This document shows, one piece after another, positions 1,657 through 59,667 of a DNA stretch of 64,000 nt (the stretch's first letter is position 1; every line of letters starts with the position of its first letter). The DNA is taken from positions 1,612-65,611 of the forward strand of contig JAOAJH010000005.1 in assembly GCA_026414305.1 (NCBI GenBank). The letters run 5' to 3'. Made by a program: the position numbers and the translations under genes. The notes under the pieces were generated by a model that was not told the DNA's origin, made no database searches, and saw only the letters and a program-made list of their open reading frames with translations. Source of the stretch: Candidatus Aenigmatarchaeota archaeon. GTDB taxonomy: Archaea; Aenigmatarchaeota; Aenigmatarchaeia; CG10238-14.

Positions 1657-1663
1657 ATCTGAT

Positions 1664-4827: not shown

Positions 4828-4839
4828 TTTAGGGGGATT

Positions 4840-41981: not shown

Positions 41982-42875
41982 ATGAATCGATTTTATGCCA
42001 TTGTGCTTGTTGCTTTTTTGATTATGCCTTTTGCATATGCTGCAGAAGAGGTTTATACAAGCCTTTACATGCTCAACCTTGGCAGGTTTGACATATCAAC
42101 AGGCTCTTTCACTGCTGATTTTTACTTGACATTGGAATGCGAGAAAAGCTGCCCGAAAATTGACTTTGAGTTCATGAACGGCAGGGCCAGTAGCTTTGAA
42201 AAGCTCATAGACCAGCCTGGGTTGAAGTCATACAGAATTCAAGCCAACCTTGTGAGCCCAATAGACTTGAAGAAATTCCCTTTTGACAACCAGACTTTGT
42301 AGATAATAATTGAAGATAAGGAAAAGACAAGGGATGAGATAATATTTGTGCCAAAGTTAAACGAAAGCGGAATAGATCCTTCAATAGTTTTTATTGGATG
42401 GGAGATGGGAGGATGGAATGCTTATGAAAAGGAGCATTATTATGATGTATATGACGAAAGCTATTCCCAATATGTGTTTGAAATTCCCATACACAGAATA
42501 AAAATAAACGCGATTTTCAAGACATTTCTGCCCATAACATTCATAGTGCTTATAATGCTCTCAAGCTTTGTTCTTGATCCTGACAAGATAACAACAAGGC
42601 TTGCAATGGTCGGCTCTGCCTTGGTTGCCTCTGTTATGTTCCACGCCTCTATTTCAAAACAGATTCCGCCTGTAAGCTATCTCACTTTCATTGACAAGTT
42701 CATGATACTGACGTATTTCATAACACTGATGAGCTTTGTGTTCAATGTTTTCATGCTTGAGATGCACGAGGAGAAAAAGGAAAAGGTTGTGGCAAGGCTT
42801 CACAAATACACAGAATTCACAATGTTTCTGCTAGTGCCGTTGCTTTATGCGCTTTTGTTTTTGCTGTTTTTGTGA
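41982..42875 (+). pseudogene. Prokaryotic pentameric ligand-gated ion channel (Cys-loop superfamily, GLIC/ELIC-like) interrupted by one in-frame TAG
   Basis: FPFDNQTL-TAG(42300-42302)-IIIEDKEK lies exactly where GLIC has YPFDSQTLHIYLIV. Downstream in the same frame are M1 with Pro (FLPITFIVLI), M2 and the post-M2 IPPVSYLTFIDKFM matching LPkVSYvkaiDiwm, then M3 and M4. Confidence 0.6.
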
Positions 42876-45185: not shown

Positions 45186-48089
45186 TCAGCACACATATTC
45201 CATGACTCGGTGAAAATCATCTTCATATGCAGATGCAAAGCAGCTGTTGTTAAATTTTTCCATGTTTTGTATGTTGTTTCTTTGCTTTGCTATGAAAACA
45301 TACAATGGTTTTTCATAAACATCCAAAAGAGGTTTTATCTCGTCAAAGCTGGATGCTGACCAGTATTTTTGCCACTGATCAAAATACCATTTATTGTGCT
45401 CAAATATGCCAGGTGCTATTGCTTTTCTGTCTGAATAGCCTAAAATCCATGGAGAATAATAGCTTGATGGAATAATTATATAGCTGTCTTTCTTTGTTGA
45501 TGCCGAAGCAGTTTTTATTGAATTTATTTCATTTTCATTCAGCAAAGGATTTAATGATGATGCATAACTGAAAGCAAGCCATGCGGATGACAAAATCAAT
45601 ATAATAATTATAAACAATTTCAAGTGATATTGCTTTATTGACAAGATGCTGTGGTAAATGCCTGCTGCGGCCAATATTGTTATTGCGAGATCAAAGTTTG
45701 TGAGAAAGCGGTTGAAGAAAAACAATTCTGCGAATATTATTATGCCTGAAACAAACGCCCATATAAACAGCAGGTTAATTTTCTTCTGCTTAATCATATA
45801 GTGAAAGGCAAATGGCAAATATGCTAGCGAAACGATCCTGAAATATGTTGGAGAGAAAAATGTTCCGCCCGCTGTTGGCGAGGAAATGTTTTTTATCAAT
45901 GATGAAAATGTGTCAATTATTATCATGTTGAATCTCGGCAAGTAAATAATCGTCAATAGAAATGATGTTGTTATCATGCTTTTCAGATAAAATCTTTTTG
46001 TTGCAATGCTGTTTACAATCCACACTATTGCTAAAATGAGAAAGGTCGGTCTGTGATAAAATCCTGTTGCTGTCGCAAAAATAACAGCAAGAAATTGGTT
46101 TTTGTCTATGAAAACAAAAAACAAAAGCATTGTTGTTATTGCTATGATGTTTTTGTAATACATGTAGCTGAATGTTGCCAGCTGTGTGTATGACAATGAG
46201 AATATGATGCATGCTATGGCTGCTATTGTTGGGTTGAAATGTTTTTTTGCAAGCATGTATATTGGGAATATTGAAAGAGATGAGAAAAGGATTAAAAGTG
46301 GGATTAAAAGATGTTCGGTTGAAAAGCCGAAAATGTATAGCAAGTCAGCAAGCACAAACAACCCTTGCTCGTGTGATGACCTTATCCATTTTTCAAGCTG
46401 TTGTTCTGGAATGTCAGGAAGGCTTGCCATGTATTTTTCAAAGACATATTTGTATATGCCTGTGTCATATCCTAGCGGTATGTGGTTGCTAATATAAGGA
46501 ATTGATCTTAATGCTATTGCTATGAAAAATGAGATTGCAACTAGCGCGTAAACATGACCTTTGGATAAATTGAATTTGGATTTTTCATTGAATAATATCA
46601 ATCCTGCTGCAACAGCGGGGATGAAGATTAGCGCAAATATGTTTTGAAATATTTTTGGTGAAAGTATTGATGCTAGCAAAACTGCTGCTGCGTAAAGCAA
46701 CAAAACAATCTTTGCAGCAATTTGTAAATTGATTTTTGGAGGTTTTGGGATGTTAAAAATTTTCAGCCATATCAAAACGCCAAAGTATGCTGTTAAAGCT
46801 ATTCCATATTTTACAGGCAGCAACAGCAAATCTACTTTGATGATCAATGATAATGAAAGCATAAGTGCTGAAGCGACTAAAAATTTAAAGAAAAGATTAA
46901 GACTGAATATTTTGTAAAGCTTTCTTGTTGATGCAAAGCTTGCGGCAAAACCGAACAATGCTGAAAGTAGTGTTGCAAAAGCTGCACCTTTTATGTCATA
47001 TATTGGTATTAGCAAGTGATTCAGCAACACAGACAAAAGTATGATTGCTATTCCTATCAGTGCTGTTGTCTTTTGCTTGTAAACAGCGTTCAGTATTGTG
47101 TTGAAAAATGCGAACAATGTGAAGATGCTGTAAGCCAATATCAATATTGCCAAAGGCTGCGATGCCTGCTGGTAGGAAGATGGATAAAACACTTTCACTA
47201 TTGATGATGCGTCTGCAAATATTGCTATTGTTATCGGTATCAGAATGATCATCAGATATTTAAGAGATTTTTTTATGTGGGTTTCGCTCTGCTTGTCGTT
47301 TGAAGAAACCAAAGGAAAGATGACTGTGCTAAAGCCTGCTAGCAGAAAAGTTGGTATTTTTGCTATGTTCAAAGCCGCTGTGTAATATCCTGCTTTTGCT
47401 GGATCCTGAGTTATTCTTTGAAGCAACAGCAAATCAACTGACTGGAAAAGAGTTATAAGCAAGCTGTAAATTGTTATTGGTATTGCATATTCAATTATTC
47501 TTTTCATTGGAGTGTTGCCTTTGTTTGAGATTGATCTGGAAGCTATGGCTATGCCAGCTAAAGCTGCAATGGCATATCCTATTATAGCGCCTTTCAAGGA
47601 AAAGAAAAAGGCTAGGGCAAAAACAGATGCTATTTTTGCTATTGAGTATGCGATTGAGGCAAAAGATTGCTGCTTGAAAAGCTTTCTTCCGTTCAAATGG
47701 GATGTTGTTACTGCGTAAACAGCATACAAAGGAAAGACTAGGGCAGATATTGGTATGTATGCCTTCAGTTGATCGTTTTTAAGGAATGATGATATCTGGC
47801 TTGACAAGGCTATGTATAATGCTGAAATTATTATTGAGATGGAAAGCTGGAATAGAATTATCTTTTTTATTGCTATCTGCTTTTCTGAGGTGAATTTTGA
47901 TGTCGCAGCGGCTATGCCTGATGTCAGCAGAATGTTGATGGTTGACTGGAAAGCGAGTATTATGCCCAGCATACCATAAAGGCTTGGGTCAAGCATTCTT
48001 GCCAAGCCAAAGTGGATGACATAGCCTGAAAGAATGAAGACTATTTGGGCTATTGTTATGTAAGCAGTGTTTTTTATGAGATCGTTCAT
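45186..48089 (-). CDS. 967-aa fusion of an N-terminal MOP/Wzx-like oligosaccharide flippase domain (about 12 TM) and a C-terminal polytopic membrane domain (polymerase- or GT-C-like)
   Basis: The N-terminal ~480 aa has Wzx-like topology and composition. A second block of about 10 TM helices plus a soluble C-terminus follows. Confidence 0.55.
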   Translation of the reverse strand: MNDLIKNTAYITIAQIVFILSGYVIHFGLARMLDPSLYGMLGIILAFQSTINILLTSGIAAATSKFTSEKQIAIKKIILFQLSISIIISALYIALSSQISSFLKNDQLKAYIPISALVFPLYAVYAVTTSHLNGRKLFKQQSFASIAYSIAKIASVFALAFFFSLKGAIIGYAIAALAGIAIASRSISNKGNTPMKRIIEYAIPITIYSLLITLFQSVDLLLLQRITQDPAKAGYYTAALNIAKIPTFLLAGFSTVIFPLVSSNDKQSETHIKKSLKYLMIILIPITIAIFADASSIVKVFYPSSYQQASQPLAILILAYSIFTLFAFFNTILNAVYKQKTTALIGIAIILLSVLLNHLLIPIYDIKGAAFATLLSALFGFAASFASTRKLYKIFSLNLFFKFLVASALMLSLSLIIKVDLLLLPVKYGIALTAYFGVLIWLKIFNIPKPPKINLQIAAKIVLLLYAAAVLLASILSPKIFQNIFALIFIPAVAAGLILFNEKSKFNLSKGHVYALVAISFFIAIALRSIPYISNHIPLGYDTGIYKYVFEKYMASLPDIPEQQLEKWIRSSHEQGLFVLADLLYIFGFSTEHLLIPLLILFSSLSIFPIYMLAKKHFNPTIAAIACIIFSLSYTQLATFSYMYYKNIIAITTMLLFFVFIDKNQFLAVIFATATGFYHRPTFLILAIVWIVNSIATKRFYLKSMITTSFLLTIIYLPRFNMIIIDTFSSLIKNISSPTAGGTFFSPTYFRIVSLAYLPFAFHYMIKQKKINLLFIWAFVSGIIIFAELFFFNRFLTNFDLAITILAAAGIYHSILSIKQYHLKLFIIIILILSSAWLAFSYASSLNPLLNENEINSIKTASASTKKDSYIIIPSSYYSPWILGYSDRKAIAPGIFEHNKWYFDQWQKYWSASSFDEIKPLLDVYEKPLYVFIAKQRNNIQNMEKFNNSCFASAYEDDFHRVMEYVC

Positions 48090-48177
48090 TTTACCCTGAA
48101 ATTTAGTATTTGAGAATAGATTTAAAAGAGTGATTGGGTTTGCTTATATGGAATTGGTTTAAAAGTGTTTGTGTTAA

Positions 48178-48639
48178 TTGTTTTTCATGAAAGCTTTGGA
48201 TTTGGGAACAGGTGACGGAAGATATCTGCTTGAGCTGGCTAGGCTAGGATACTATGCAATAGGTGTTGACAAGAGAAGCTGGCCTGTTGATGATGATGTG
48301 GCTAGATCAATCAGCGATGGTAGGATAAAAATAGAGGTTGCCGATGCACTTGATTATTTGAGGTCTTGTACTGATAGATTTGACCTTGTCAGCGTTAGAT
48401 ATCCGGACGAGCTTGGATATTACATTTATTTTACCAGTCTGACAGACTCTTTTGAATTTTTGAATCAGGTTTACAGGGTTTTGAAAAATGATGGGATCTT
48501 CCTAGTTGTTTCCAGGCAAGATGATTATCCTTATGATGATGTTGTAAAGGCTGTTGAATGGACTGGACTTTTCAGGAAGGATGAATTGAAGGTTGATGAA
48601 TTGAGAAATTATGAGTTAAGATTTAAAAAATGCGTTTAG
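48178..48639 (+). CDS. Class I SAM-dependent methyltransferase (small)
   Basis: Motif I ALDLGTGDGRYLLELARLGYYAIGVDK. Confidence 0.6.
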   Translation: MFFMKALDLGTGDGRYLLELARLGYYAIGVDKRSWPVDDDVARSISDGRIKIEVADALDYLRSCTDRFDLVSVRYPDELGYYIYFTSLTDSFEFLNQVYRVLKNDGIFLVVSRQDDYPYDDVVKAVEWTGLFRKDELKVDELRNYELRFKKCV

Positions 48640-48687
48640 GAAGGATGGTTTCTATAGATATTGCAAGGTTGTATTGGGTTTACTTTT

Positions 48688-49010
48688 TGCTCAAATATCG
48701 GGAAAAAGCGTATATAGATAATTTGTGCGATATCGAGTAGAAAGCGAATATATGTGTGATTTGCTCAAATAGCGGGAAAATACGTATATGCGTAATTTGC
48801 TCAAAATCAAGCAATAATGCGATAGGATATTCGTTTTTTGCTCAAATAGCGGGAAAATGTGCATATAGATAATTCGATTAAAATCTGAGTAAAAGGCGTA
48901 TATACAGAATTTGCTCAGAATTGAATAGAAAGCGTATATTCGTGATTTGCTCAAATAGCGGGAAAAAGCGTATATATATAATTTCCTCAATTTACGCAAA
49001 AACCCGAATA
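48688..49010. repeat. Array of about 9 degenerate ~37-bp tandem repeats (consensus ATTTGCTCAAATAGCGGGAAAAAGCGTATATAGATA)
   Basis: Four well-conserved copies (48688, 48763, 48839, 48946) alternate with degenerate copies. The region is GC-richer than its surroundings and intergenic. The 156-aa minus-strand ORF 48691-49161 lies over it and is probably spurious. Confidence 0.6.
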
Positions 49011-49057
49011 GCAGATTTATAATCAGTTTAAAAACCTTTTTACCAATAATTTTTTTA

Positions 49058-50080
49058 ATGGCATACAAGTACAAGCCTAAAACGCAAACAAACAAAGCTG
49101 TTTTAATTGGTATTGCTATCACTGCTTTTGTTATTGGATTGCTGCTTTTGCTTCCTGGCAAAGATGAAAGGCCTCTGGAAGTAAGGTTGCAAGAGTATTT
49201 GATGAAAAAAGTTCCTAGGAATGCTACTGTTGCTGTTGAAGGTGTTGATCCTGCTGTACTTGATAAAATTGAAAGGCCGATTGTTTGGCTTGCTAATTAT
49301 ACACCTTCGAAAGAACCGATTGATTTGAATGTCACTATAAGAGGCAGCCATAAATTATGGGTATATTTGGCTGATGGTGAAGATTTGGAATTGAATTTGT
49401 CAAAACAGGACTTGAATTGGTATAATGGAACTGATGTTTTGAGGATTGAAGTTTACAATCCGGATTTGAAGTTGGTTTATAATTATAGCATTGAGGATGA
49501 TGGTATTGATGTTGTTGAAAAGCAGTTTGATCCAAAGATGCTTGGAAAAGAGCAGTTTCATAGGGTTTTTGTAAAGAATAAAGGGCAAGGGGCATATAAA
49601 ATATTGTTGATTTCTCAAGCTAAAGGAGATGATTTTTATATTCATTTAAAGTCGACAATGCAGAATAAGATGGTATTTCAGGATAAAATTTATATTTATC
49701 TCTATGATAATTTTTGGTTTAATTGTTTAAAATATAATTGTAATCTAAATTTTATGACTTATCATAATAGTAGTTTACAAAATTTTAATATAATATGTAC
49801 AAAAAACAATTATACAATAAGTTTAAATCAAACTAACAAAATTTTCAATTTTACCACAAAAAATGATGAAAATAATTGTAAATTTTCTAAAATTGAAAAC
49901 CACAAATCATCAGAAAAACAAAAAACAAGTTTAATTTTTAGTTCAAATAAAATTTCTTTTTTTATATATCAAAATTCATTTTTCTATCCATATTCTATAG
50001 TTAACAAAAATTCTGATTATTTGGTTATTTTTAAAGAAAATAAAATTTTTCAGGTGAAAAATATTGAAAAAAAATATTGA
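49058..50080 (+). CDS. Membrane-anchored protein whose ORF runs across a compositional junction; the C-terminal third is a low-complexity Asn/Lys/Ile tail
   Basis: Residues 1-210 have normal composition (signal/TM, beta-rich). From about nt 49685 the DNA becomes extremely AT-rich and the translation is low-complexity. The real gene probably ended or was truncated near 49685. Confidence 0.4.
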   Translation: MAYKYKPKTQTNKAVLIGIAITAFVIGLLLLLPGKDERPLEVRLQEYLMKKVPRNATVAVEGVDPAVLDKIERPIVWLANYTPSKEPIDLNVTIRGSHKLWVYLADGEDLELNLSKQDLNWYNGTDVLRIEVYNPDLKLVYNYSIEDDGIDVVEKQFDPKMLGKEQFHRVFVKNKGQGAYKILLISQAKGDDFYIHLKSTMQNKMVFQDKIYIYLYDNFWFNCLKYNCNLNFMTYHNSSLQNFNIICTKNNYTISLNQTNKIFNFTTKNDENNCKFSKIENHKSSEKQKTSLIFSSNKISFFIYQNSFFYPYSIVNKNSDYLVIFKENKIFQVKNIEKKY

Positions 50081-51683
50081 ATTTAAAAATGCGGAAAAAA
50101 TTTTTTTATTCATACTTATAATGACAATATCTATATATATTTATTTAATTAATCCTTATAAAAATACAAAATTATTTTTTACACCGGATGAATATTCATT
50201 CTTTTTTTATTCTCAAAAAATATTAAAAAATAATTTCTTTTTGAATGAAAATATTTTAAACAATAAGTATTCAACAACCGCTTTTTCTCCATATTTTTCT
50301 TCATACTCAGACAAAGGCGATTTGTTAAAAGACCATTTTGGTTATGTTATATTCCTTTCATTATTATCATTGTTTATAAAAATAACAAATATACCGGTTA
50401 TTATTACAATATTTAATTTATTTTGTTTTTTTTTAATATCTGTTTCATTTTTGAAGAAAAGTATTTCATTTGTCTCCTTATTAATATTTTCATTATTCCC
50501 AGTATTTTTACATTTTTATCCACTATTATTTTCTGACAACTTAGGTTTGATTTTTTTCTGTCTATGGTTCTACAGCACTAGAAAAATTGAATATTCTAAT
50601 TGGAAAATAATGTCCATAATTTTTTCTTCTTTCCTAACATTAATAAGATATGTAAATGTCATTTTTTTAATTTTTACTATTTTAATTTTAATTTACAAAA
50701 AAAACATTAGAATATTATTGACTATATTTCCATTAATTATTATTTTTATGTTATTTCCAATCATATTAATTAATATTATATACTATGGAAACCCTTTTGT
50801 TTACCCACAATTTGAAAATTCAAAAAGTGTACTAGATATTAACAAATATCCATATAAAAAATATGATATTCAAAGCAATATAAACAAATCCTCTTTTTTA
50901 TCTTATATAAAAGAGTATTTTGACATAAATTCAATATTATTATCATTTAAATATCTAATTTTTTTTAGCCCTCTAGCTCCATTGTCTATAATAGGTATTT
51001 TTTTATTAATAAAAGAGTTATTTATCTTTGGAGATAAAATAACAATATCTATAATGATTCTTCTACTCATTTACATGATTTTTATGTTTAGTATAAAAGA
51101 CATATTTAGAGTTAGTAATGTACCTTCACTACATGACTCTTTATCAAGATACTTAATTCCTGTATTTTCATTTATTATAATCTTGATATCAAAATCATTA
51201 TATTATAAAAAAAATAGTCAATATTTAGTATCGATTTTGATTTTTTTAATAATAACAATATCGATTTTAAATTTATACAATGTAACTATTGAGGATCCGC
51301 TCAATTATATTGTAATAAAAGAAAAAATCATGTACTACCAGAAAATACATGATAAAGTAATTTCTAATACGGAAAATAATTCGATAATTATAACATCTGT
51401 ATGGGAAAAAATAATATATCCAGAAAGAAATGTACTAGTTTATATAAGAATACCAGAAGAAATAAGACTTGATGAAATAAACAGAATTGTCAAAGAGTTA
51501 AAAAATGATTCTTATGATGTATATATTTTAGTTACTAATACTGAACTTAAATATTATAAAGATACTTCTGACAAAAAAATAAAATTTTATGATGTAATTA
51601 ATAATTTAAATGATAAATTCAAAACAGAAATGATTTTATCAGATAATGATTTAGATTTAATAAAAATTGGTGAACTAAAATGA
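50064..51683 (+). CDS. Polytopic GT-C-like membrane glycosyltransferase (ArnT/PMT-like)
   Basis: 539 aa, more than 12 TM. Loop-1 TPDEYSFFF has a DE motif as in ArnT/PMT families. Very low GC. Confidence 0.45.
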   Translation: MKKNIEFKNAEKIFLFILIMTISIYIYLINPYKNTKLFFTPDEYSFFFYSQKILKNNFFLNENILNNKYSTTAFSPYFSSYSDKGDLLKDHFGYVIFLSLLSLFIKITNIPVIITIFNLFCFFLISVSFLKKSISFVSLLIFSLFPVFLHFYPLLFSDNLGLIFFCLWFYSTRKIEYSNWKIMSIIFSSFLTLIRYVNVIFLIFTILILIYKKNIRILLTIFPLIIIFMLFPIILINIIYYGNPFVYPQFENSKSVLDINKYPYKKYDIQSNINKSSFLSYIKEYFDINSILLSFKYLIFFSPLAPLSIIGIFLLIKELFIFGDKITISIMILLLIYMIFMFSIKDIFRVSNVPSLHDSLSRYLIPVFSFIIILISKSLYYKKNSQYLVSILIFLIITISILNLYNVTIEDPLNYIVIKEKIMYYQKIHDKVISNTENNSIIITSVWEKIIYPERNVLVYIRIPEEIRLDEINRIVKELKNDSYDVYILVTNTELKYYKDTSDKKIKFYDVINNLNDKFKTEMILSDNDLDLIKIGELK

Positions 51684-52864
51684 TAATATTAGATTGTGTA
51701 CCTGCAGGTGTCATACCACCAAAGGGGGGTGGGACAAAAAGAATACATAATATAAATTTGTTTCTATCAAAATACTATAAAATATTAATGTTTTCTCACG
51801 GTATTAGAAAGTTTGAATTTAAACTTCCATTGAATTCATGGGTAAAAAAAATAAATTATAATTACTATGAAGTAAGATATATTGATCCATATTTTATAAT
51901 TTCATCTTATCTTTTAAATAAACTTTATAATATTGGTCCGATATTTTCAAGTAACTTTTTATTTATAAACAACCCAAATTTTGTAAAAAATCTAATTAAT
52001 AGTTCTGATATAATAAAAATTGAACATCCATGGCAGTTTAAATATTTTCATAATATGAATAAGAAAAAGGTTCCAATTATTTTAACCTTACACGATATTG
52101 GAATCGAACTAGCTTTACAGACAATTAAAAATGGTTTTCTGAAAAAAAAATTAATTAAAATAATTAGTACAATGGAAGATTTTGCAATAAAAAATGCCGA
52201 CAAAATAATAGTTGTTTCTGAGGATGACAAAAAAAGGTTGAAAGAAATATATGGAACAGAAAATAAAAAAGTAGTTGTTGTTCCAAACGGTGTAAACACG
52301 AAAGAATTTAAATCAACATCAAATAAAGAAGAAATAAAGAAGAAATATGGTATGGAAAATAAAAAAGTAGTTATTTTTTCTGGATGGAAACACATACCAA
52401 ACCTACATGCTGTGAATCAAATAATAAAAATATCAAAAGATTTAAACGAAAAAAATGTTGTTTTTATAATAATTGGAAGTGTTGGTGAATTTTTTAAAAA
52501 AATCAAATCAAATAATATTATATTTACTGGTTATGTTGATAAAGTAGACGATTATTTTGCTATGGCTGACCTGGCATTAAATCCGATGATTTCTGGTACC
52601 GGTACAAATATAAAGATATTGGAATATTTGTCATATGGAATACCTACCATAACTACTAAAAAAGGGTGTCGGGGTTATAACTTAATTAACCGCAAAGAAG
52701 CATTAATATGTGATTTAAAAGAATTTCCTGAAAAAATATCATACTTACTCAACAACGATATTATGAGAAATAAGCTTTCATTTTATGGAAAAAAATTTGC
52801 AAAAAAATATGATTGGAACAATATAGCTAAAATAGAAAAAAAAATATATGATGATATTATATGA
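51680..52864 (+). CDS. GT4 glycosyltransferase
   Basis: GT-B architecture. C-terminal ALNPMISGTGTNIKILEYLSYGIPTI region. 4-nt overlaps with neighbouring genes. Confidence 0.6.
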   Translation: MIILDCVPAGVIPPKGGGTKRIHNINLFLSKYYKILMFSHGIRKFEFKLPLNSWVKKINYNYYEVRYIDPYFIISSYLLNKLYNIGPIFSSNFLFINNPNFVKNLINSSDIIKIEHPWQFKYFHNMNKKKVPIILTLHDIGIELALQTIKNGFLKKKLIKIISTMEDFAIKNADKIIVVSEDDKKRLKEIYGTENKKVVVVPNGVNTKEFKSTSNKEEIKKKYGMENKKVVIFSGWKHIPNLHAVNQIIKISKDLNEKNVVFIIIGSVGEFFKKIKSNNIIFTGYVDKVDDYFAMADLALNPMISGTGTNIKILEYLSYGIPTITTKKGCRGYNLINRKEALICDLKEFPEKISYLLNNDIMRNKLSFYGKKFAKKYDWNNIAKIEKKIYDDII

Positions 52865-54012
52865 AAAAAATAATTTTAATTTCCTTCGAATATTTTCCAT
52901 ACAAAGATGGTGGCTTGTCTAGATATTCTTACGAACTAACAAGAGAATTTTTTAAACTAAAAAATATAAAGTTTAAATTGATTATAGGGTTTCCAAAAAA
53001 TCATAAAAAACCAAAAGAAAATTATATAATTCCCATTGAAGTTGAATTTTATAATAATAAAATTCTTTCATATTTATTTTTTTCATGGAAAGTTTACTTT
53101 AAACTCATCTTTATGAAAAACAAAGAAAATTTTATTATTCATGCACTCAATCCTTGGAGTTATTTCTTTATTCCAAAAATTAAAAAAGTAAAATTTGTAC
53201 TTACAGAACACAATATAATTTCAAAGCAAATTAATATGGCATATGGATCATCAATACTCGATAAAATTTTAAGATATATTTTTTATATTTTTTTCTCTTT
53301 TTGGGAAAGGCATCTTTGCCAAACAGCTGATAAAATAATAGCTGTAAGTAAATCTACTAAAAATGACTTGATGAGATTTTATAATATACCTAATAAAAAA
53401 ATTGAAGTGATTTATAATGGTATTAATTTTAAAAATTTTTCTCCGGTTAAAATAAGATTCAATAAAAAAAGAAGAAATCTTTTATTTGTTGGTAGAATTG
53501 TCCCAAGAAAAGGTTTAGAATATTTGGTTGAAACTATATTCTTAATTAAAAAAGAAATATCTGATATAAAACTTTATATAGTTGGTAAAGGAGAAAATGA
53601 TTATTTAATTAAATTGAAAAAAATGATAAAAAAAATGAATCTCGAAAAAAATATTAAATTTTTGGGTTTTATTGAAGATAAAAAATTAAATAAAGTTTAT
53701 TCTATGACAGATATTTTTGTTTTTCCAAGTTTAGTTGAAGGTTTTGGATTAGTCCTTTTAGAAGCTATGACTAAAGGTAAACCAATAGTTGCCACTAATA
53801 TAGGTGGTGTCAATGAGGTTATTATCAATGGTAGAGATGGTATTTTAGTAGAGCCAAAAAAACCAAAAAAAATGGCTGAAGCAATTATTAAACTAATAAA
53901 TGACGATAAATTATATAATAAATTTTCTCAAAATGCAATAAAAAGTGTAAAAAACTTTTCATGGAAAAAATCAGCAAAAAAAGTTTATGAAATATATAAT
54001 CATTTAAGTTAA
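52861..54012 (+). CDS. GT4 glycosyltransferase
   Basis: FPSLVEGFGLVLLEAMTKGKPIVATNIGG (E-x7-E motif). Confidence 0.7.
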   Translation: MKKIILISFEYFPYKDGGLSRYSYELTREFFKLKNIKFKLIIGFPKNHKKPKENYIIPIEVEFYNNKILSYLFFSWKVYFKLIFMKNKENFIIHALNPWSYFFIPKIKKVKFVLTEHNIISKQINMAYGSSILDKILRYIFYIFFSFWERHLCQTADKIIAVSKSTKNDLMRFYNIPNKKIEVIYNGINFKNFSPVKIRFNKKRRNLLFVGRIVPRKGLEYLVETIFLIKKEISDIKLYIVGKGENDYLIKLKKMIKKMNLEKNIKFLGFIEDKKLNKVYSMTDIFVFPSLVEGFGLVLLEAMTKGKPIVATNIGGVNEVIINGRDGILVEPKKPKKMAEAIIKLINDDKLYNKFSQNAIKSVKNFSWKKSAKKVYEIYNHLS

Positions 54013-55224
54013 AATAAGATTTATATAATTTTTGGATATTTTTTTCAAGCTAAATTTATTTGAATATATAAAATTATTTGTCTGAATTTTATAAATATTT
54101 CTTTTTGAATTAATTACATTCAAAATGGTTCTATTTAACTTTTCAATATCTTTACTTTTAATTAAAAGACCACTTTTTCCATTGTTTATTATATCAGAAA
54201 CCCCACCAACATCACTAGCAACTATGGGTAAACCAGCAGCCATACCTTCCATAATAACAACGGGCATACCTTCAGTATCACCAGTTTCATCAACTATAGA
54301 AGGAACAACCAGAATATCAGCAAGATTAAAAAATTCCACTTTCTTTCTACCAACAATATAACCAGTAAACAAAACATTTTTCTCTATTCCTAGTTTTTTT
54401 GTGAGATCAATCATTTCACCCATTAAAGGACCGCTACCACAAACAATCAGACCTACGTCCTTTCTTTCCTCTATTATTTTCGGCATTGCTTCAAGTAAAT
54501 ACCTTAATCCTTTCTTTTCAGCAATTCTTCCAACAAAAAGTAATACATGTTCCCAAGTTATATTATGTTTTTTTCTCAATTCTTTCTTACTTTGTTTTAA
54601 TCTAAATTGCTCAACATTTACCCCCATAGGAATTATAGAAATTTTTTTCTCAATCTCGTTATCATAAAAGATTTTCAAAAAGCGGTTTTTTACAAAGGTA
54701 CTAACAAAAGTTATATTATCTGAATTTTTAACACAAAATTCGGCAATTTTTGATTTGAAAGGTAATTTATCAAGACCTGACAATCCAGCAGCATGTTCAG
54801 TCATAATATGTTTAATATTAAACAATTTCTTGCAAACAGCTCCAACAAAACCAGACGGAATAATCCAGTGAGAATGAATAACATCTATTTTTTCTTTTTT
54901 AACTAATTTGATAGCATATATTAATTCAGCCAATACCAAAAAAGGAACTTGTATCTTTGCCAAAAAACTTCTTTTTAAATTACCCATTATGCCTCCTTCA
55001 TAACACAATCTTTGAAGTTTTTCTGGCAAAAAATAGCTAAATCTGTATACTTTCATACCGTCCATTATTTCAAATTTTTTTGCTCCATAATGATGTGGAG
55101 CTAAAACCACAATATCTACATGTTTGTTTAACTCTTTAGAAAGATCATAAACAAAAGCAGGCGTAGAATCATCCTTCCATCTAGGAAAAGTAGTCGTTAA
55201 AACCAAAACTTTTTTTCTTTTCAT
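54004..55224 (-). CDS. GT4 glycosyltransferase
   Basis: VPSIVDETGDTEGMPVVIMEGMAAGLPIVASDVGG. Confidence 0.7.
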   Translation of the reverse strand: MKRKKVLVLTTTFPRWKDDSTPAFVYDLSKELNKHVDIVVLAPHHYGAKKFEIMDGMKVYRFSYFLPEKLQRLCYEGGIMGNLKRSFLAKIQVPFLVLAELIYAIKLVKKEKIDVIHSHWIIPSGFVGAVCKKLFNIKHIMTEHAAGLSGLDKLPFKSKIAEFCVKNSDNITFVSTFVKNRFLKIFYDNEIEKKISIIPMGVNVEQFRLKQSKKELRKKHNITWEHVLLFVGRIAEKKGLRYLLEAMPKIIEERKDVGLIVCGSGPLMGEMIDLTKKLGIEKNVLFTGYIVGRKKVEFFNLADILVVPSIVDETGDTEGMPVVIMEGMAAGLPIVASDVGGVSDIINNGKSGLLIKSKDIEKLNRTILNVINSKRNIYKIQTNNFIYSNKFSLKKISKNYINLILT

Positions 55225-55285
55225 TCATTCTCTAACAAAAAAACCTTTCTTAAACTTTAAATCTCTTTCTATCAGACATTAATTA

Positions 55286-55660
55286 ATGGAAATCCCCCAA
55301 ACAATCAAAGAATCAGTCATCCAATCATTCAATTACTTGCTAATCCTATTCCTGCTATTCTTGCTAATAGAGGAAATATGGCCAAACACTCTAAAAAGAT
55401 ATATAAATCCAGATTATTTCATGATAGCAGTAATAGCAGTGGGCATACCTGCTGTTTTATGGCATGAAGACAAGCCAAAGCCAAAGGAAGAGATAACAAA
55501 AAAGGATTATCTGCTCATAGCATTGCTAAGCATAGCAGGCTTTGGAATTCTGTATTACAAGCTGAAAGCATTCCCATTAGGCATCTTCATCTCAATAATA
55601 GGCGGCATACTCATCTTCCTGCTGAGCTATCTTGTTTTGACAGAAGATGATCAAGATTAA
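55286..55660 (+). CDS. Small hypothetical membrane protein (3 TM)
   Basis: Hydrophobic segments and an acidic C-terminus. Confidence 0.35.
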   Translation: MEIPQTIKESVIQSFNYLLILFLLFLLIEEIWPNTLKRYINPDYFMIAVIAVGIPAVLWHEDKPKPKEEITKKDYLLIALLSIAGFGILYYKLKAFPLGIFISIIGGILIFLLSYLVLTEDDQD

Positions 55661-55699
55661 TACAAATCATTATAAATCACTTTTTCTCAAAATTGTTTT

Positions 55700-56026
55700 A
55701 TGGAAATATTTCTAGTTGAATCATTAAAAGAAAAGCTATCAAAACCTAGATTTAAACCTCACTATCAAACCATAAAATCCTTAATAAGAAAGCTAAAAGA
55801 GCAAGGCAAAAATTCGCTAAAATTCCTTGACATTCAAGATCAATATATTTTAGGTGAAATGAAAGTTAAAGAACCGCCCTACAGGCTTTATGTAATCTTG
55901 AACCAAAAAGTTGACGCATATTATATAGTTGATTGGTCTCACAAAGATGAGCAAGCAAGAACAATAAAAAGTTTAAAGGAAAAACTAAAAGAGGCTATAT
56001 CCATAGGAATAGAAAATATATTCTAA
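55700..56026 (+). CDS. Small hypothetical protein, weak resemblance to RelE/ParE-type toxins
   Basis: PYRLYVILNQKVDAYYIVDWSHKDE loosely resembles the YRiiYrv...vyilrighR region. No obvious antitoxin partner. Confidence 0.25.
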   Translation: MEIFLVESLKEKLSKPRFKPHYQTIKSLIRKLKEQGKNSLKFLDIQDQYILGEMKVKEPPYRLYVILNQKVDAYYIVDWSHKDEQARTIKSLKEKLKEAISIGIENIF

Positions 56027-56316
56027 CATTTATCTAAAAAATCTTCAATTTCTTTGTTTTTAAGCGCTTTTTTCCTTCCTTTTTCTATTTCGTTTATTTC
56101 TGGAAGATATTTCAAAAAAACGAATTTATAGTACATTTTTTTGGCAAGATCGTCTGCCATAGATTCTATAATTTTTTCAGTTTTTAATTCAGCATTCATG
56201 TTTCTGCTCATTTAAATACACCGACCAAACTTGTATATTAAATTATTTGGGTAATCTTTATAAAATATACTACACTTTGAATAAGATATAAAATAAATTA
56301 TATATGTTACAATATA

Positions 56317-57258
56317 CTATTTAGATCTCTTTCTCAGCATATAAATTATCTCTTCCTGCAAATCCCTTTGAGTCCTTAACATGTCAGCAAGCAAGCCAAA
56401 AGTGAAGACTATCACTCCTGTAATGAAAAACATTGCAGAAAGCAAGCCTCTTCCAGTATATCCTGTGAACATGCCAGTAGCAAAGTAATGCTGCAGGACA
56501 GGAATAGCAACCAATGCAGAGAGCAAGAAGAACGCAAAAGATATTGGCAAAAACACTTTCAGAGGATCATAATCTCTCATACTTCTTATCATCGTCAAAC
56601 CAGCCATCCTAGCATACTTGAATATATTTGCTATAAGCCTTGACTTGCCTTCTCTTTTCCTAAACTCAACAGGCACTTGCTCTATGACCAAGCCCTTGTG
56701 CTTTGCCTGTATTAATGTTTCCTGAACATATGTGTACCTGCCAAACAAATTCAATTTCATCACAGCATCGCTGCTAAGCGCTCTAAAACCAGTTTGCGCA
56801 TCTTTTATCGGCAATCCAGACATCAACCGAGTGAAAAAAGTTGCAATCTTGTTGCCTATTTTTTTCTGCAAAGGCATGTGATCAAGCTTGTCAATGTCTC
56901 TCCATCCCAAAACAATGTCTGCATTTCCATCAATTATCGGCTTTACAAGCTTTGCTATTTCTTTTGCATTATACTGACCATCAGCGTCTATGTTCACTAC
57001 AATATCAGCATCCATGTCCAAAGCTTCATTCAATCCTTTTTTGAAAGAAATTCCCAAACCCATGTTTTTTCTGTTTGAAACAATCCTGTCAGCACCTGCC
57101 TTTCTAGCAACCTCAACAGTCTTGTCGCTAGATCCATCATTAATTACAAGAATTTCGACTTTGCTTATGCCTTCAATCTTTCTTGGTATTTCTTTGATTA
57201 CGCTTGCTATTGTCTTCTCTTCGTTATATGCTGGAATCATTACAACTAGCTTTGTCAT
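56317..57258 (-). CDS. GT2 polyprenol-phosphate hexose synthase-like glycosyltransferase with C-terminal TM helices (AglD/AglJ/DPM1-like)
   Basis: MIPAYNEE...VINDGSSDKT...DADGQ...DAQTGFR. Two C-terminal TM segments. Confidence 0.7.
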   Translation of the reverse strand: MTKLVVMIPAYNEEKTIASVIKEIPRKIEGISKVEILVINDGSSDKTVEVARKAGADRIVSNRKNMGLGISFKKGLNEALDMDADIVVNIDADGQYNAKEIAKLVKPIIDGNADIVLGWRDIDKLDHMPLQKKIGNKIATFFTRLMSGLPIKDAQTGFRALSSDAVMKLNLFGRYTYVQETLIQAKHKGLVIEQVPVEFRKREGKSRLIANIFKYARMAGLTMIRSMRDYDPLKVFLPISFAFFLLSALVAIPVLQHYFATGMFTGYTGRGLLSAMFFITGVIVFTFGLLADMLRTQRDLQEEIIYMLRKRSK

Positions 57259-57465
57259 ATAATCCTTACTTTGATAATAAGAATAAAGTTTAAAAATATT
57301 AAAGTTGGCCTATGTTCATTTTTTACCAAAATAGCAGCAAAAATACGAATATATTGGTTAATCTTTATAATTCGCTTTTTTCTCTAAACATAAGTAAAAT
57401 ACGGATATAATTAAACACAAAACATTTATGATAAATTTAAAACATGTTTTTATAAAATATATAAA

Positions 57466-58361
57466 GTGGTTGAGCAAACTCTGGCTTTTGTAGCAGGCAT
57501 AATAATAGGAATTTTGGTTTTTGCCTTGGCTTATCGTCTTTTGAGTGTTTCAATAAACCAAGCCTAAAATCAGGCAGCAATACAGAATTTTAACAAGCTT
57601 TACTCGCAAGTTCAGGCAGTGTGCAAACAGGAGACTGGCAGCAAGATGACAGTAAAGCTTCAGATACCTGTGACAATAAGAGCAGTGTATTTCAGTGACG
57701 ATAATGTGAATCCACTGCCGACTGTTGTTGATTTGATATAGACGGACTCACAAAGCAAAGGAAGCTATCTTTGCATGCAATTCAAAAAAGAGCAGGAATT
57801 GAGGTGCGAAAAGGTAAGTTGCAACGGCCAGATGCCTTATATAGGTGCATTAGAAGATTACAATGATTTGCAATTAGCAGTGAGCAAAATTCTAGGGAAA
57901 AGCATAATAAAACATTATTACCTTTCTATTAAAAAAGACCTTAATAGCAATGTTGACATAAAAATTACGACAGCTTCATCCACGACAACGACAACCGTCA
58001 CAACCGTCACAACTACACAAACAACCACGACAAGGACATTAATTACAACGACTCATGCTACAACGACAACATATCAAAAAATAAACTCCAAAGTTTTATT
58101 GATTATTTACAATCCGATAATAGAGTCTCAAAATAGCGAGAAATTAACTAACGTTATGAAATGGAACGATCCTATACATTTAACTGACTTGTTTATTCAA
58201 AGGATCAAAGAGTCAAGCCATGATATTGTCCATTATGATATTGTAGAAACAATAGAAATTGATGAAATACCAGTGAAATTAGATGGTTTCAAATATACCG
58301 ATGAAGAATATATCAATTGTGCGACAAATAACGCTAATTGCCACTTTCCAGATGGCGTAGA
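57466..58361 (+). pseudogene. Decayed Thr-rich surface-protein gene: hydrophobic N-terminus, two in-frame stops (TAA 57565, TAG 57739), poly-Thr linker, 3' region occupied by IS200 tnpA
   Basis: Frame 1 reads VVEQTLAFVAGIIIGILVFALAYRLL..-TAA-..60 codons..-TAG-..MQFKKEQ...TTASSTTTTTVTTVTTTQTTTTRT (track ORF 57775-58572). It lacks the C-terminal Cys modules of its paralog 59668-60939. Confidence 0.35.
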
Positions 58362-58900
58362 CTATATGTCAATGACATCCTCTGCGGACTTTAGTCCGCA
58401 GTTTCCTACTGATTTAGTAAAAACATCTAATTGCAATTGCTGTTCACGAACATATTTCCTAGCAACTTCTATTGTTATCCGACCAATAGTATCCTTGAAA
58501 TTTCCCTTTGACCAAAAACTTCCTCTAGGATATCTTAATCTGAAATTTTGTATTAGTCTGAATAACTCATAAGATGATGCTCCTTTTAGCAATTGAACAG
58601 CTTTAGATTGAGACATGTATGGCGGCAACTGAGCTATGACATGCACATGATCTTCCATCACAGCTAACTCTAATATCTGTATGTGATGTTTTCTGGCTAC
58701 CATATACAAAATATCTTTGCAATATTCTCTCAGTCTTTCTTTTCTAAACATTTTGTATCTATATTTAGTGCACCATTCAAGATGGTGGATATTATTGCCA
58801 ATGCTATGGCTAAAGCTATTGAATTGTTGCTCCATAAAAACACCTCGTAAAGCTTTAAGTAAACAGAACTCCATAGCTAAAGCTAGATATTTATCGATTT
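58340..58900 (-). mobile_element. IS200-type insertion sequence (tnpA only); boundaries approximate
   Basis: Solo tnpA with no tnpB. Partly repeated GGCTAAAGCTA motifs sit at 58804 and 58876 near the tnpA 5' end. The ends were not mapped. Confidence 0.4.
58362..58874 (-). CDS. tnpA: IS200/IS605-family Y1 (HuH) transposase TnpA
   Basis: HLEWCTKYRYKMF matches H.vWcpKYRR. HuH motif EDHVHVIAQLPP. LLKGASSYEL, FWSKGNF...TIG and C-terminal KYVREQQ carrying the catalytic Tyr. The likely true start is the internal Met at 58835. Confidence 0.8.
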   Translation of the reverse strand: MEFCLLKALRGVFMEQQFNSFSHSIGNNIHHLEWCTKYRYKMFRKERLREYCKDILYMVARKHHIQILELAVMEDHVHVIAQLPPYMSQSKAVQLLKGASSYELFRLIQNFRLRYPRGSFWSKGNFKDTIGRITIEVARKYVREQQLQLDVFTKSVGNCGLKSAEDVIDI

Positions 58901-59033
58901 ATGGAGCTCTGCTCCTATTTTTTATTTTTGATTTCATAATAGAAGAAGGCAACCAATTCATCTACGGGCTAAAGCCCACAGATTTCTTGGTTGGATATTA
59001 AAAATTTAATCCTATTTTTTACAATAAAATCTC

Positions 59034-59318
59034 TTAATAGACAAAGCTTGGAAAAATCTTCTGGCTTTTTCCTGCCTCCATAATAGCATAAAACAATTTG
59101 CCTTGAAAGGTCGCAAAGATGCTGCCAAACACTGTTCTTAACAGATTCTGTAAAATTCCGTCATAATAAAGCTGCATTGCCATTAGCATGTATTCTTTCA
59201 AGGCAAAAACATCATCTTCATCATATATTGTCCTTATTATCTCATTCATTTGAAGGCATGGTTGATGCTTAGTCATTTTAATCACGAATTTGAAATTTAA
59301 TTTAAAAATTACAGTCAA
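59034..59318 (-). CDS. Small hypothetical protein (94 aa)
   Basis: ORF with normal composition. No motif recognised. Confidence 0.25.
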   Translation of the reverse strand: MTVIFKLNFKFVIKMTKHQPCLQMNEIIRTIYDEDDVFALKEYMLMAMQLYYDGILQNLLRTVFGSIFATFQGKLFYAIMEAGKSQKIFPSFVY

Positions 59319-59595
59319 TTATTTAAATTTTGGTTTAATTCTAAATCTTATGTGCTTGAATACATCAAATCACTACATAAGGATAACTGGCAGACGAAGC
59401 GTAAGTGAAATTTCAGAGACGTTTAGATCAAGAGGGATTTACGAAGCACAAATGGATGGAGTGACTGTAAAATTCGGTAAAGACTTCATTCAAATAATTC
59501 CAGAAAATCAAGGAGTTGCACATGATCTTTCTAAGGAAGGGCTTTACAGAATTAGAACAGTAGATGAAAAATATATCATTAAAAAATTAAAATGA
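59290..59595 (+). CDS. Small hypothetical protein (101 aa)
   Basis: ORF only. Confidence 0.25.
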   Translation: MKFNLKITVNYLNFGLILNLMCLNTSNHYIRITGRRSVSEISETFRSRGIYEAQMDGVTVKFGKDFIQIIPENQGVAHDLSKEGLYRIRTVDEKYIIKKLK

Positions 59596-59667
59596 GGCAT
59601 AAACAAATTTTATACTTTTTATACAACAAAAAATTTAATATTGAAAATCGCTTTATTATAAGATAAA

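Follow-up and report, generated by a model that had tools for sequence, protein, structure and literature searches.

A locus-specific minisatellite of variable copy number upstream of a glycosyltransferase operon in a Candidatus Aenigmarchaeota genome

DPANN archaea spend their lives on the surface of host cells, and very little is known of their regulation. The systems closest to the repeat array described here differ from it in several features. MIRU-type units sit at many loci of one genome, and classical iterons are 17-22 bp long. The tandem direct repeats of Borgs (Methanoperedens) are intergenic and A-rich on the coding strand, change fast in unit number and often have a flanking partial unit (PMC9879509). 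They are perfect or near-perfect, recent, pervasive on the element and hardly ever present on host chromosomes; they have no known function and a regulatory role has been suggested for them (PMC9879509).

We analyzed a 64-kb stretch of DNA (the window) from a Candidatus Aenigmarchaeota MAG; the exact 150-aa methyltransferase encoded beside the array is recorded under this name in NCBI. Unlike Borg repeats, the array found there is chromosomal, solitary, old and degenerate, with units 51-94% identical. The array is a real, locus-specific, non-coding minisatellite of variable copy number. Its unit size lies in the range of minisatellites and VNTRs (approximately 10-100 bp), its copy number varies and its variant units are mosaic. 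An earlier note on this DNA had offered "degenerate satellite" as one possible name, which is correct as a description; relatives differ in copy number.

Anatomy of the array and variation among its units

The array consists of nine head-to-tail units of 36-41 bp each, without gaps, and spans positions 48686-49018 of the plus strand (333 bp). Unit boundaries were read by hand and then confirmed with a script. TRF detected tandem repetition at two levels, with 8.2 copies of period 36 at 48686-48990 (score 152, 64% matches) and, at a higher order, 2.5 copies of period 74 at 48686-48874 (score 210, 75% matches). Among the intergenic tandem repeats that TRF found in the 64-kb window, it is the only one of this size. 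The approximately nine degenerate 37-bp repeats described in the earlier note were therefore confirmed by both TRF and the unit-by-unit reading. The units follow the order A B A D A E F A Z, so that conserved and diverged copies do alternate, as had been claimed, but imperfectly.

Unit A1 (48686-48721, 36 bp) carries the core with one mismatch, G13T, and has as its ortholog the one conserved unit of two related genomes (89% identity with unit 1 of L059, 81% with unit 1 of L058). Units A2 (48760-48795), A3 (48837-48872) and A4 (48946-48981), each of 36 bp, contain the exact 21-nt core TTTGCTCAAATAGCGGGAAAA. The diverged units, likewise on the plus strand, are B (48722-48759, 38 bp, nhmmer E=1e-4), which is 81% identical to unit 2 of L059; D (48796-48836, 41 bp), with an insertion of 4-5 nt and a T6 run at its end; E (48873-48909, 37 bp); F (48910-48945, 36 bp), which is kin to B and to L059 unit 2; and the terminal, most degenerate unit Z (48982-49018, 37 bp, nhmmer E=4e-3). 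An exact 25-nt junction (GTGA and the core) is common to the F/A4 boundary, at A4, and the B/A2 boundary.

Pairwise identity is 83-94% among A1-A4, which differ at no more than 6 positions as full units, and 51-74% for the five other units, both among themselves and against the A units. The 21-mer is exact in three A units and off by one base in the fourth; with at most one mismatch it occurs 4 times in the window, while 0.00 occurrences were expected (100 shuffles), and with at most three mismatches it occurs nowhere else in the 64 kb. The consensus had been said to recur four times nearly perfectly, which is true of the 5' 21-22 nt but not of the full units. The intact cores lie 74, 77 and 109 bp apart, with decayed units between them. 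The core starts with the dyad TTTG-CT-CAAA, and this 4+2+4 dyad (TTTGCTCAAA) is the only symmetry of the unit.

GC content of the array is 33%, the same as that of the window (32.6%) and of coding DNA (33.2%), and higher than that of other intergenic DNA (27.9%) and of the downstream genes (19-28%). The array is therefore the GC-richer block that had been described only in relation to the latter two. Purines prevail on its plus strand (A 37%, G 20%), which has a T5 run at 48684 and a T6 run at 48832; on the minus strand, T5 runs lie opposite GGGAAAAAGCG in A1 and A4.

Conservation within the A units was uneven. Variable sites among A1-A4 amounted to 1 of 21 positions in the core versus 7 of 15 in the 3' part (Fisher test, p = 0.0047), and such core-sparing variation fits selection or gene conversion acting on the 21-bp core. 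C5 and C14 are common to the A units of the window, while both relatives have T5 and T14; the pattern TTTG[CT]TCAAATAG[CT]GGGAAAA spans both variants. The cores of the A units thus evolve in concert. Different pairs of units have exact patches in common (14, 18, 22 and 25 nt, with differing boundaries), and such a mosaic is typical of recombination or conversion among repeats. The dyad TTTGnnCAAA was retained in 86% of unit cells and in 83% in shuffles (29 of 500 as high). Therefore a palindrome is not supported beyond plain sequence conservation. The dyad showed one compensatory change, not above shuffles, and TTTGNNCAAA was not enriched outside the array.

An open reading frame of 156 aa runs through the array on the minus strand (48691..49161) and overlaps the start of the following 340-aa gene by 104 nt. 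It had no match in Pfam and 0 matches in 1.84 billion representative proteins, it was absent from a collection of 15 billion proteins and it is unannotated in NCBI. Its codon log-odds was -0.06 (-0.32 in the array part), compared with 0.30 +/- 0.08 and a minimum of 0.11 for real genes. The frame is an artefact, as the earlier note had judged probable. The periodic peptide of this frame is LSIYAFSRYLSK; the peptide FAQIAGK, which had been ascribed to it, belongs instead to a plus-strand frame with a stop in every unit (FAQISGKSVYR-stop).

Flanking genes, related genomes and the replaced island

Directly upstream of the array lies a class I SAM-dependent methyltransferase gene (48187..48639, plus strand, 150 aa, MCX8178924.1; Pfam Methyltransf_31/11/25), with a BRE/TATA-like GGTTTAAAAG approximately 29 nt before its ATG at 48187. 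The accessions of the two genes flanking the array, MCX8178924.1 and MCX8178925.1, are consecutive and belong to proteins of the source MAG. Downstream there is an operon (49058..54012, plus strand, GC 19-25%; Pfam GT4), the ORFs of which overlap or abut. Its products are a 340-aa protein, a 539-aa protein and two GT4 glycosyltransferases. The 340-aa protein had no family match in Pfam and apparently has a hydrophobic N-terminal segment, while the 539-aa protein reads as a multi-pass membrane protein, both judged from the translations. The methyltransferase match and the apparently hydrophobic N-terminus of the 340-aa protein are in line with the flanking genes proposed earlier. The surroundings are chromosomal and include FtsZ, a topoisomerase and a DEAD/DEAH-type helicase adjoining an ERCC4-domain nuclease. 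We did not observe DNA-binding domain matches in small ORFs near the array or in the relatives, nor a transcription-factor gene that adjoined the array or was conserved with it.

Unit 1 has at its 5' edge a T5 run (48684..48688, plus strand) that is conserved in all three genomes compared, and TTTACTTTTTG is invariant across the window, L058 and L059. Oligo-T tracts terminate archaeal RNA polymerase, and the T5 run is probably the intrinsic terminator of the methyltransferase transcript. On the other side, 8 bp separate the array end at 49018 from the probable BRE/TATA of the operon. The candidate TATA box GTTTAAAAAC (49026..49035, plus strand) was found by eye, outside the array and approximately 28 nt before the ATG. 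It is similar, also by eye, to TTTAAA-type boxes located approximately 25-40 nt before other start codons in the window, and the motif obtained by EM from the upstream regions of window genes has the same TTTAAA-type consensus. The best EM site for the 340-aa gene was weaker and lay a few bases downstream of GTTTAAAAAC (5.0 bits), and there was no plus-strand EM site above 6 bits in 48600-49060. Since the scan preferred the weaker site and none passed 6 bits, the assignment of GTTTAAAAAC as the probable TATA box of the downstream operon rests on inspection.

We compared three genomes, namely the window, L058 and L059. Both relatives carry the element at the orthologous place, next to a methyltransferase gene with a product 85-87% identical. 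There are 9 units in the window, at least 3 in L059, where the contig ends inside the array, and one clear and one weak unit in L058. Therefore copy number varies at the orthologous locus. The layout in L059 is A-B-x, without a second A, and its unit 2 shows 81% identity to window units B and F, so an array of several units was probably already present before the lineages of the window and L059 separated.

The spacer between the methyltransferase stop and the array (48640..48683, plus strand) is unusually diverged between relatives. In the comparison of the window with L059, 15 of its 43 aligned columns were identical (35%), while the values were 69/80 for adjacent coding DNA and 39/44 for unit 1. 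Identity of unit 1 between genomes is approximately 81-89%, and other intergenic DNA of the same genome pair reaches 74-98% per 100-nt bin. It is therefore the spacer that is anomalous, not unit 1, and purifying selection on unit 1 was not demonstrated. Constraint on unit 1, as suggested by 89% against 35% in the spacer, was dropped in view of this background. Another genome, L024, has a 51%-identical homolog of the 340-aa gene without the array upstream; taken together with the one or two units of L058, this indicates that the array is dispensable.

In blastn, L058 positions 1-817 corresponded to window 47905-48724 and positions 2383-5565 to window 59052-62260. Homology to L058 stops exactly after unit 1 (48724). 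The next 10.3 kb (48725..59051), with the array as left edge, have no counterpart in L058, which has 1.56 kb of different genes in their place. The 10.3-kb segment includes the glycosyltransferase operon, which is low in GC, together with the tnpA gene of an IS200 transposase and a PRTase gene that is truncated. The locus documents island replacement in Aenigmarchaeota.

Searching the 64-kb window with an nhmmer profile of 13 units, we found no unit copy outside 48686-49018 at E<0.5. A solo unit at 57320-57360, convincing by eye, was rejected, as 40 of 500 shuffles scored as high and other windows scored higher. Three further matches lie in coding DNA and were at chance level (20/21 at approximately 8.5 kb, 28/38 at 53.9 kb and a 12-mer at 17982). 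Derivation of the unit from the 3' end of the methyltransferase gene was also rejected; AAAAAATGCGTTTAG and GAAAAAGCGTATATAG are loosely alike, and the profile search found nothing there. Exact-seed scans of GTDB genomes, JGI metagenomes and IMG/VR revealed no other array, only single hits in unrelated bacteria; the seed was an 18-base pattern with C5/C14 of the window, for which approximately 17 chance hits were expected in the genome collection by a hand estimate. BLAST against phage and plasmid records gave no similarity to the array. The earlier note would have abandoned a local array had the unit proved to be a dispersed MITE-like repeat. We observed no dispersed copies in the window, neither terminal inverted repeats nor a stable hairpin per unit of the MITE or REP/BIME kind, and no other array in the public scans.

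Possible explanations of the array

We give a probability of roughly 40% to the view that the array is an old minisatellite which acts, if at all, as DNA, as a putative protein-binding or spacing array upstream of the operon promoter. As for its formation, we infer that a sequence of approximately 36 bp starting at the T5 run, just 3' of the methyltransferase gene, gave rise to head-to-tail copies through replication slippage or unequal recombination. These copies would then have diverged, and some would have been re-homogenised in patches, leaving four units with an intact 21-bp core. The array yields no protein and probably no stable RNA, so that any action would be as DNA. Its most likely activity would be that of a putative operator or upstream-element array for a sequence-specific, probably dimeric DNA-binding protein, and gain or loss of units would alter the number and spacing of the putative sites. 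Several results speak against binding. There is no gene for a binding protein among those near the array, gene conversion alone can explain the homogeneous core, the dyad was not above shuffles and TTTGNNCAAA showed no enrichment outside the array. Moreover, L024 lacks the array, L058 has one or two units only, and unit 1 is not above intergenic conservation, with three genomes in all.

Nearly as likely as a DNA-acting array is a neutral VNTR, that is, a functionless repeat left by slippage or unequal recombination at an island junction that is prone to recombination, in which the cores would be recent conversion patches. Copy numbers of 1-2, at least 3 and 9 among relatives, the decay of 5 of the 9 units and exact patches with different boundaries between unit pairs are consistent with this possibility. 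So are the ordinary conservation of unit 1, the L024 homolog without the array, the lack of a partner protein and the presence of the motif at no other place in the window. On the other hand, 333 bp of units diverged by 26-49% must be old and have persisted in two lineages, in an archaeal group whose genomes are expected to be small and compact. Variation in the A units avoids the 21-nt core (p = 0.005), and conversion alone would have to stop at much the same position in three units.

We consider it unlikely that the array is a transcribed repeat, either the template of a regulatory RNA or a series of tandem promoters in which a weak BRE/TATA in each unit (GAAAAAGCGTATATAG) would feed the operon. 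The purine-rich plus strand and the fold of the whole array on that strand (z=-2.26, 0 of 100 shuffles as stable) would agree with transcription, and GAAAAAGCGTATATA is loosely like a generic archaeal BRE+TATA. A regulatory-RNA role has also been suggested for intergenic Borg tandem repeats (PMC9879509). However, there was no Rfam family at gathering score and only chance-level matches in E-value mode (E 1.5-3.6), RNAalifold gave zero conserved pairs over 14 units, the folds of single units (-1.7 to -5.9 kcal/mol) were not more stable than those of shuffles, and the minus-strand fold had z=-0.80. Within the array, no plus-strand site of the promoter motif AAAnnTTTAAAtt, obtained by EM on 33 upstream regions of the window (real-gene median 8.5 bits), exceeded 6 bits, and one minus-strand site reached 6.5 bits. 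The T5 and T6 runs on both strands would terminate archaeal transcription within the array and thus argue against a long transcript. A scan for sigma-70 promoters was discarded as irrelevant for an archaeon. With no family, no consensus fold and T runs on both strands, the structured-RNA template suggested earlier is disfavoured, and tandem promoters lack motif sites.

It is rather improbable that the putative binding array forms an archaeal "contingency locus", with a variable number of putative regulator sites before the promoter of a swapped surface-glycosylation operon. Slippage of the 36-bp unit would then switch or tune the surface glycans of a symbiotic DPANN archaeon. To our knowledge, repeat-mediated phase variation of surface glycans has not been described in archaea.

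There is still less reason to regard the unit as a recombination site, the crossover for swaps of glycosylation cassettes, with tandem copies as scars of exchange. The role of the unit would be comparable to that of conserved sequences flanking variable polysaccharide loci, and homology to L058 does end after unit 1, the next 10.3 kb being different. However, no unit copy is present at the right junction (59052) or elsewhere in the window, and serial integration does not leave head-to-tail copies without intervening DNA. The nearest recombinase-type gene, that of the IS200 Y1 transposase, is 9.4 kb away and the ends of its element are unlike the unit; a link to the IS200/IS605 transposase was rejected, as the IS region does not resemble the unit.

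An origin or partition array, comparable to archaeal ORB elements, plasmid iterons or centromere repeats, is very improbable. Tandem direct repeats in which a G-run comes after a short dyad (TTTGCTCAAA..GGG) are similar in outline to an ORB element, a dyad with a G-string. Among approximately 55 ORFs, Pfam revealed no orc1/cdc6, rep, parA/segA, plasmid or virus gene, and no integrase or par genes were present in the ORFs of the 64-kb window scanned in this way. All units are direct, without an AT-rich unwinding element between inverted sites, and the sole AT-rich flank of the array is the 39-nt promoter region. The context is chromosomal, and phage and plasmid records were not similar in BLAST. 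The check for a plasmid or virus origin proposed earlier thus revealed no replication initiator, plasmid or virus gene in 64 kb, and therefore a strict replication iteron is not supported.

Finally, a degenerate or orphan CRISPR (36-bp repeats with "spacers" of 38-41 bp) or a protein-coding repeat is rejected, as the earlier note had already judged in the case of CRISPR, in spite of CRISPR-like spacing of conserved units and a minus strand open for 156 codons, because the "spacers" can be recognized as divergent forms of the repeat (nhmmer E 2e-5 to 3e-3, values inflated by the presence of the scored units in the profile), A4 abuts Z, E and F form a doublet, L059 lacks a second A, no Cas domain was found in window ORFs of at least 120 aa and no CRISPR-DR match in Rfam, and the open frame has no homolog, non-coding codon usage, no annotation and an overlap with the next gene.

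Significance and comparison with known systems

A minisatellite and nothing more would be a minor curiosity. It would serve as a strain marker in an archaeal phylum of which little is known, and as a repeat that breaks assemblies at the margin of a variable glycosylation island. If the intact cores are true binding sites and their number changes by slippage, the locus would be a case in which repeats drive variation in the expression of surface glycans of a DPANN archaeon.

With CRISPR the array has in common an archaeal genome and conserved 36-bp units every 74-77 bp approximately, but it lacks unique spacers, cas genes, a leader and a repeat-family match. With iterons and operator arrays it has in common direct repeats, a conserved core, a position immediately upstream of a promoter and concerted evolution of the core within the genome. 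The unit spacing of approximately 36.5 bp corresponds to about 3.5 helical turns, and the 74-77 bp between intact cores to about 7 turns. Unlike iterons, the array has no cognate initiator or regulator gene and no origin features, and its units of 36-41 bp, which are putative binding sites, exceed classical iterons in length.

Unlike MIRU, the array occupies one locus in 64 kb and, in the public sequences scanned, was found only at the orthologous site of two relatives, and its units are much more diverged (51-94% identity). In other respects it is like prokaryotic VNTR loci such as mycobacterial MIRU-VNTR. The units measure tens of bp, follow one another head-to-tail and lie between co-directional genes, copy number differs between genomes and variant units carry mosaic patches.

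Anatomy and setting of the array

Tandem Repeats Finder detected a period of 36 (8.2 copies, 64% matches) at 48686-48990 and a higher-order period of 74 (75% matches) at 48686-48874; the array is the sole intergenic repeat of such size within the 64 kb window. We set unit borders by reading the sequence and then cutting it in register. This yielded nine units that directly abut one another in plus-strand orientation, A1 (from 48686, 36 bp), B (from 48722, 38 bp), A2 (from 48760, 36 bp), D (from 48796, 41 bp), A3 (from 48837, 36 bp), E (from 48873, 37 bp), F (from 48910, 36 bp), A4 (from 48946, 36 bp) and Z (48982-49018, 37 bp), so the tandem array reported in the earlier note is real. Conserved and diverged copies are interleaved as that note described, but the order A B A D A E F A Z makes the alternation imperfect. 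Identity was 83-94% among the four A units and 51-74% for every other pair. The 21-mer TTTGCTCAAATAGCGGGAAAA occurred four times at no more than 1 mismatch (0 in shuffles) and was not found elsewhere in the window even with 3 mismatches allowed. The near-perfect recurrence of the consensus is exact only over the 5' 21-22 nt. At 33% GC the supposedly GC-richer block exceeds other intergenic DNA (27.9%) and the downstream genes (19-28%), but it equals the window average.

The proteins encoded on either side match MCX8178924.1 and MCX8178925.1 exactly (NCBI, Candidatus Aenigmarchaeota archaeon MAG). Upstream lies the gene of a 150-aa class I SAM methyltransferase (48187-48639, Pfam), divergent from the gene for a 967-aa polysaccharide-biosynthesis (flippase-like) protein. 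Downstream, GC drops to 19-25% in a four-gene operon (49058-54012, plus strand) encoding a 340-aa protein of no family, a 539-aa protein and two GT4 glycosyltransferases. Read by eye from the translations, the 340-aa protein appears to have a hydrophobic N-terminus and the 539-aa protein appears to be a multi-pass membrane protein. The remaining window is chromosomal with many surface and glycan genes; it encodes FtsZ, a topoisomerase, DUF2298 proteins, GT2/GT4 enzymes and CARDB proteins, and a DEAD/DEAH-type helicase gene adjoins an ERCC4-domain nuclease gene. A 175-aa ORF (42348-42875, plus strand) resembles the transmembrane region of pentameric ligand-gated ion channels (Pfam Neur_chan_memb 28.1 bits, exactly at cutoff; NCBIfam LGIC_1 E=1.4e-13, far below its cutoff) and looks like a truncated archaeal pLGIC-like gene.

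Copy number and conservation in relatives

Homologs of the methyltransferase led us to two related contigs, L058 (GCA_039001075.1; 87% protein identity) and L059 (Logan SRR27215045; 85%). In L058 one clear unit (TTTGTTCAAATAGTGGGAAAAGGCGAATACAGACAA) lies 47 nt past the stop codon and is followed by a weak second unit and a convergent gene, while L059 carries three units and ends inside the array. L059 unit 2 is 81% identical to B and to F, so the array probably already had several units before the window and L059 lineages separated. Copy number has changed since, with 1-2 units in L058, at least 3 in L059 and 9 in the window. The first unit of L059 is 89% identical to A1/A4, and all three genomes share the motif TTTAC-TTTTTG unchanged at the unit 1 5' edge. 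A more distant relative, L024, has a 51%-identical homolog of the 340-aa gene with only 16 nt upstream and no array there. L059 also holds an extra 117-aa ORF of no family (1588-1941, minus strand) between the flippase-like and methyltransferase genes; about 376 nt are missing from the window at 48136-48158.

Among A1-A4, 1 of 21 sites varied in the core (the first 21 nt of the unit) vs 7 of 15 in the rest (Fisher p=0.0047). All four carry C5 and C14, where both relatives have T, a case of concerted evolution of the core. Exact patches of 14, 18, 22 and 25 nt common to unit pairs have differing boundaries, the product expected of gene conversion. Between genomes unit 1 was 82-89% identical and the preceding 44-nt spacer only 33-35%. 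Since identity elsewhere in the intergenic DNA of that genome pair is 74-98%, it is the spacer that is anomalous and not unit 1 that is specially conserved. This spacer (48640-48683 vs L058 731-777 and L059 2446-2494; both flanks 82-89% identical) looks replaced, not gradually diverged. The core opens with the dyad TTTG-CT-CAAA, retained in 86% of cells; one change is compensatory (TTCG..CGAA, L059 unit 3). Such retention was not above that in column-preserving shuffles (83%), and the pattern was not enriched outside the array.

We favour, with a probability of roughly 0.4, an old, locus-specific minisatellite which, if active, acts as DNA. A sequence of about 36 bp starting at the probable oligo-T terminator of the methyltransferase gene would have been amplified in tandem, presumably by slippage, and its copies later eroded and in part re-homogenised by conversion. 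The array makes no protein. A stable RNA is also improbable, since archaeal transcription terminates at oligo-T and the T5/T6 runs, present on both strands, would be expected to stop archaeal RNA polymerase. The four intact 21-bp cores are spaced by 74, 77 and 109 bp and the array ends 8 bp before the putative BRE/TATA of the operon, a layout that would suit an operator or upstream-element array for a putative dimeric DNA-binding protein. Gain or loss of units would then alter site number and spacing, and possibly expression. A neutral VNTR with conversion patches is nearly as likely: the patches are consistent with it, and the low variability of the core speaks against it.

Transcription, recombination and coding

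That the array is a transcribed repeat or a set of tandem weak promoters seems unlikely. Folding of the whole array gave z=-2.26 for the plus and z=-0.80 for the minus strand; the centroid was unstable. Rfam returned nothing at gathering score and only chance-level matches at E>1, single-unit folds were no better than shuffles, and RNAalifold found no conserved pair across 14 units. The array is not a known or evidently structured RNA, and these results disfavour the earlier suggestion of an RNA template. From 33 upstream regions of the window we learned a promoter motif (AAAnnTTTAAAtt, mostly 25-58 nt before ATG). The array is no set of canonical promoters: none of its plus-strand sites exceeded 6 bits, and its minus strand had one site of 6.5 bits (real-gene median 8.5 bits). 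By inspection, a candidate TTTAAA-type box for the operon (GTTTAAAAAC) lies just outside, at 49026-49035; the motif scan did not pick it out.

A crossover site used in island swapping is quite improbable, although the array does sit at a breakpoint. By blastn, L058 1-817 corresponds to window 47905-48724, ending just past unit 1, and L058 2383-5565 to window 59052-62260. Synteny resumes on both flanks, so the junctions are real and not an assembly chimera. The stretch between them spans 10.3 kb in the window, where it comprises the other eight units, the low-GC operon with more glycosyltransferases after it, an IS200/IS605 transposase and a PRTase 5' remnant; L058 has 1.56 kb of different genes in this place. 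The Y1 transposase gene (58362-58874, minus strand) scores 98.7 bits against Pfam Y1_Tnp and 103 bits against NCBIfam transpos_IS200. It overlaps a Thr-rich ORF (57775-58572, plus strand) at the 3' end of that ORF and adjoins the remnant (59034-59318, minus strand) of the PRTase gene, a gene that is intact in L058; homology resumes at 59052, the right edge of the segment. Glycosyltransferase genes at 50064-55224, inside the segment absent from L058, are of very low GC (19-28% vs about 33% for the window). In L024 the homologs of the 340-aa gene (49058) and a GT2 gene (56317-57258) are directly adjacent, suggesting insertion of the low-GC genes between the two. Beyond the edge, orthologous Thr-tandem-repeat ORFs (59668-60939, plus strand, and L058 2993-4243; TTTPTTTT-type peptide, units such as ACAACTACA) are 69-80% identical in the repeat vs about 90-97% in the flanks. 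This coding repeat is thus also fast-evolving; the proteins are, at a guess, secreted or surface proteins.

Origin or partition iterons are very improbable: tandem layout apart, domain searches of the window found no orc1/cdc6, rep, par or integrase genes, and BLAST against phage and plasmid records gave no match to the array, so the check for a plasmid or virus origin was negative within the window. Nor did a unit profile search of the window find the further copies expected of a dispersed MITE-like repeat; a similar stretch at 57.3 kb and a handful of further candidates were at chance level. Exact-seed scans of genome, metagenome and viral collections, with a seed carrying the window's C5/C14, gave only single matches in unrelated organisms. 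An exact 12-mer of the core (TTGCTCAAATAG) at 17982-17993 (plus strand), about 12 nt ahead of the helicase gene, which starts at 18006, was judged chance (1.0 expected at no more than 1 mismatch). It reads in frame ..K L L K stop, like the end of a putative short upstream coding sequence.

A CRISPR remnant or coding repeat has next to no probability: the "spacers" between A units are diverged units (nhmmer E 2e-5 to 3e-3, inflated since the scored units were in the profile), A4 abuts Z, E and F form a doublet, Rfam CRISPR-DR had no match and the window has no cas genes, which bears out the earlier exclusion of CRISPR, and every unit has stops in each of the three plus-strand frames. The "FAQIAGK" peptide ascribed to a 156-aa minus-strand ORF belongs to a plus-strand frame. 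That ORF was rightly suspected to be an artefact: it had no Pfam match and 0 matches among 1.84 billion representative proteins, is absent from a 15-billion protein collection and overlaps the following gene at that gene's start, and the genes on either side of the array carry consecutive NCBI accessions. Its codon log-odds were -0.06 (array part -0.32) vs 0.30 +/- 0.08 in real genes, and it stays open only because the A unit is free of stops in two of its three minus-strand frames. A coding 36-nt tandem repeat (31661-31750, 2.5 copies, 96% identical, in ORF 30974-32470, minus strand) shares the unit length, and its sequence (TGAGCTGCCACCGGATGAACTGCC...) is unrelated.

Comparison with known repeats

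The odd point is that a 21-bp core has been selectively preserved beside a variable glycosylation island. One meaning would be that this DPANN archaeon controls its surface glycosylation through repeat number, though we regard it as a long shot. The array lacks the defining features of CRISPR, ORB origins, MITE/REP elements, Rfam RNAs and coding repeats, and its likeness to iterons and operator arrays is confined to layout. Borg elements (PMC9879509) have intergenic tandem repeats that are likewise archaeal, A-rich and variable in unit number, whereas the array here is degenerate, old, solitary and chromosomal. It showed every minisatellite/VNTR property that we tested, and is a genuine but modest feature, a further example of an intergenic minisatellite.
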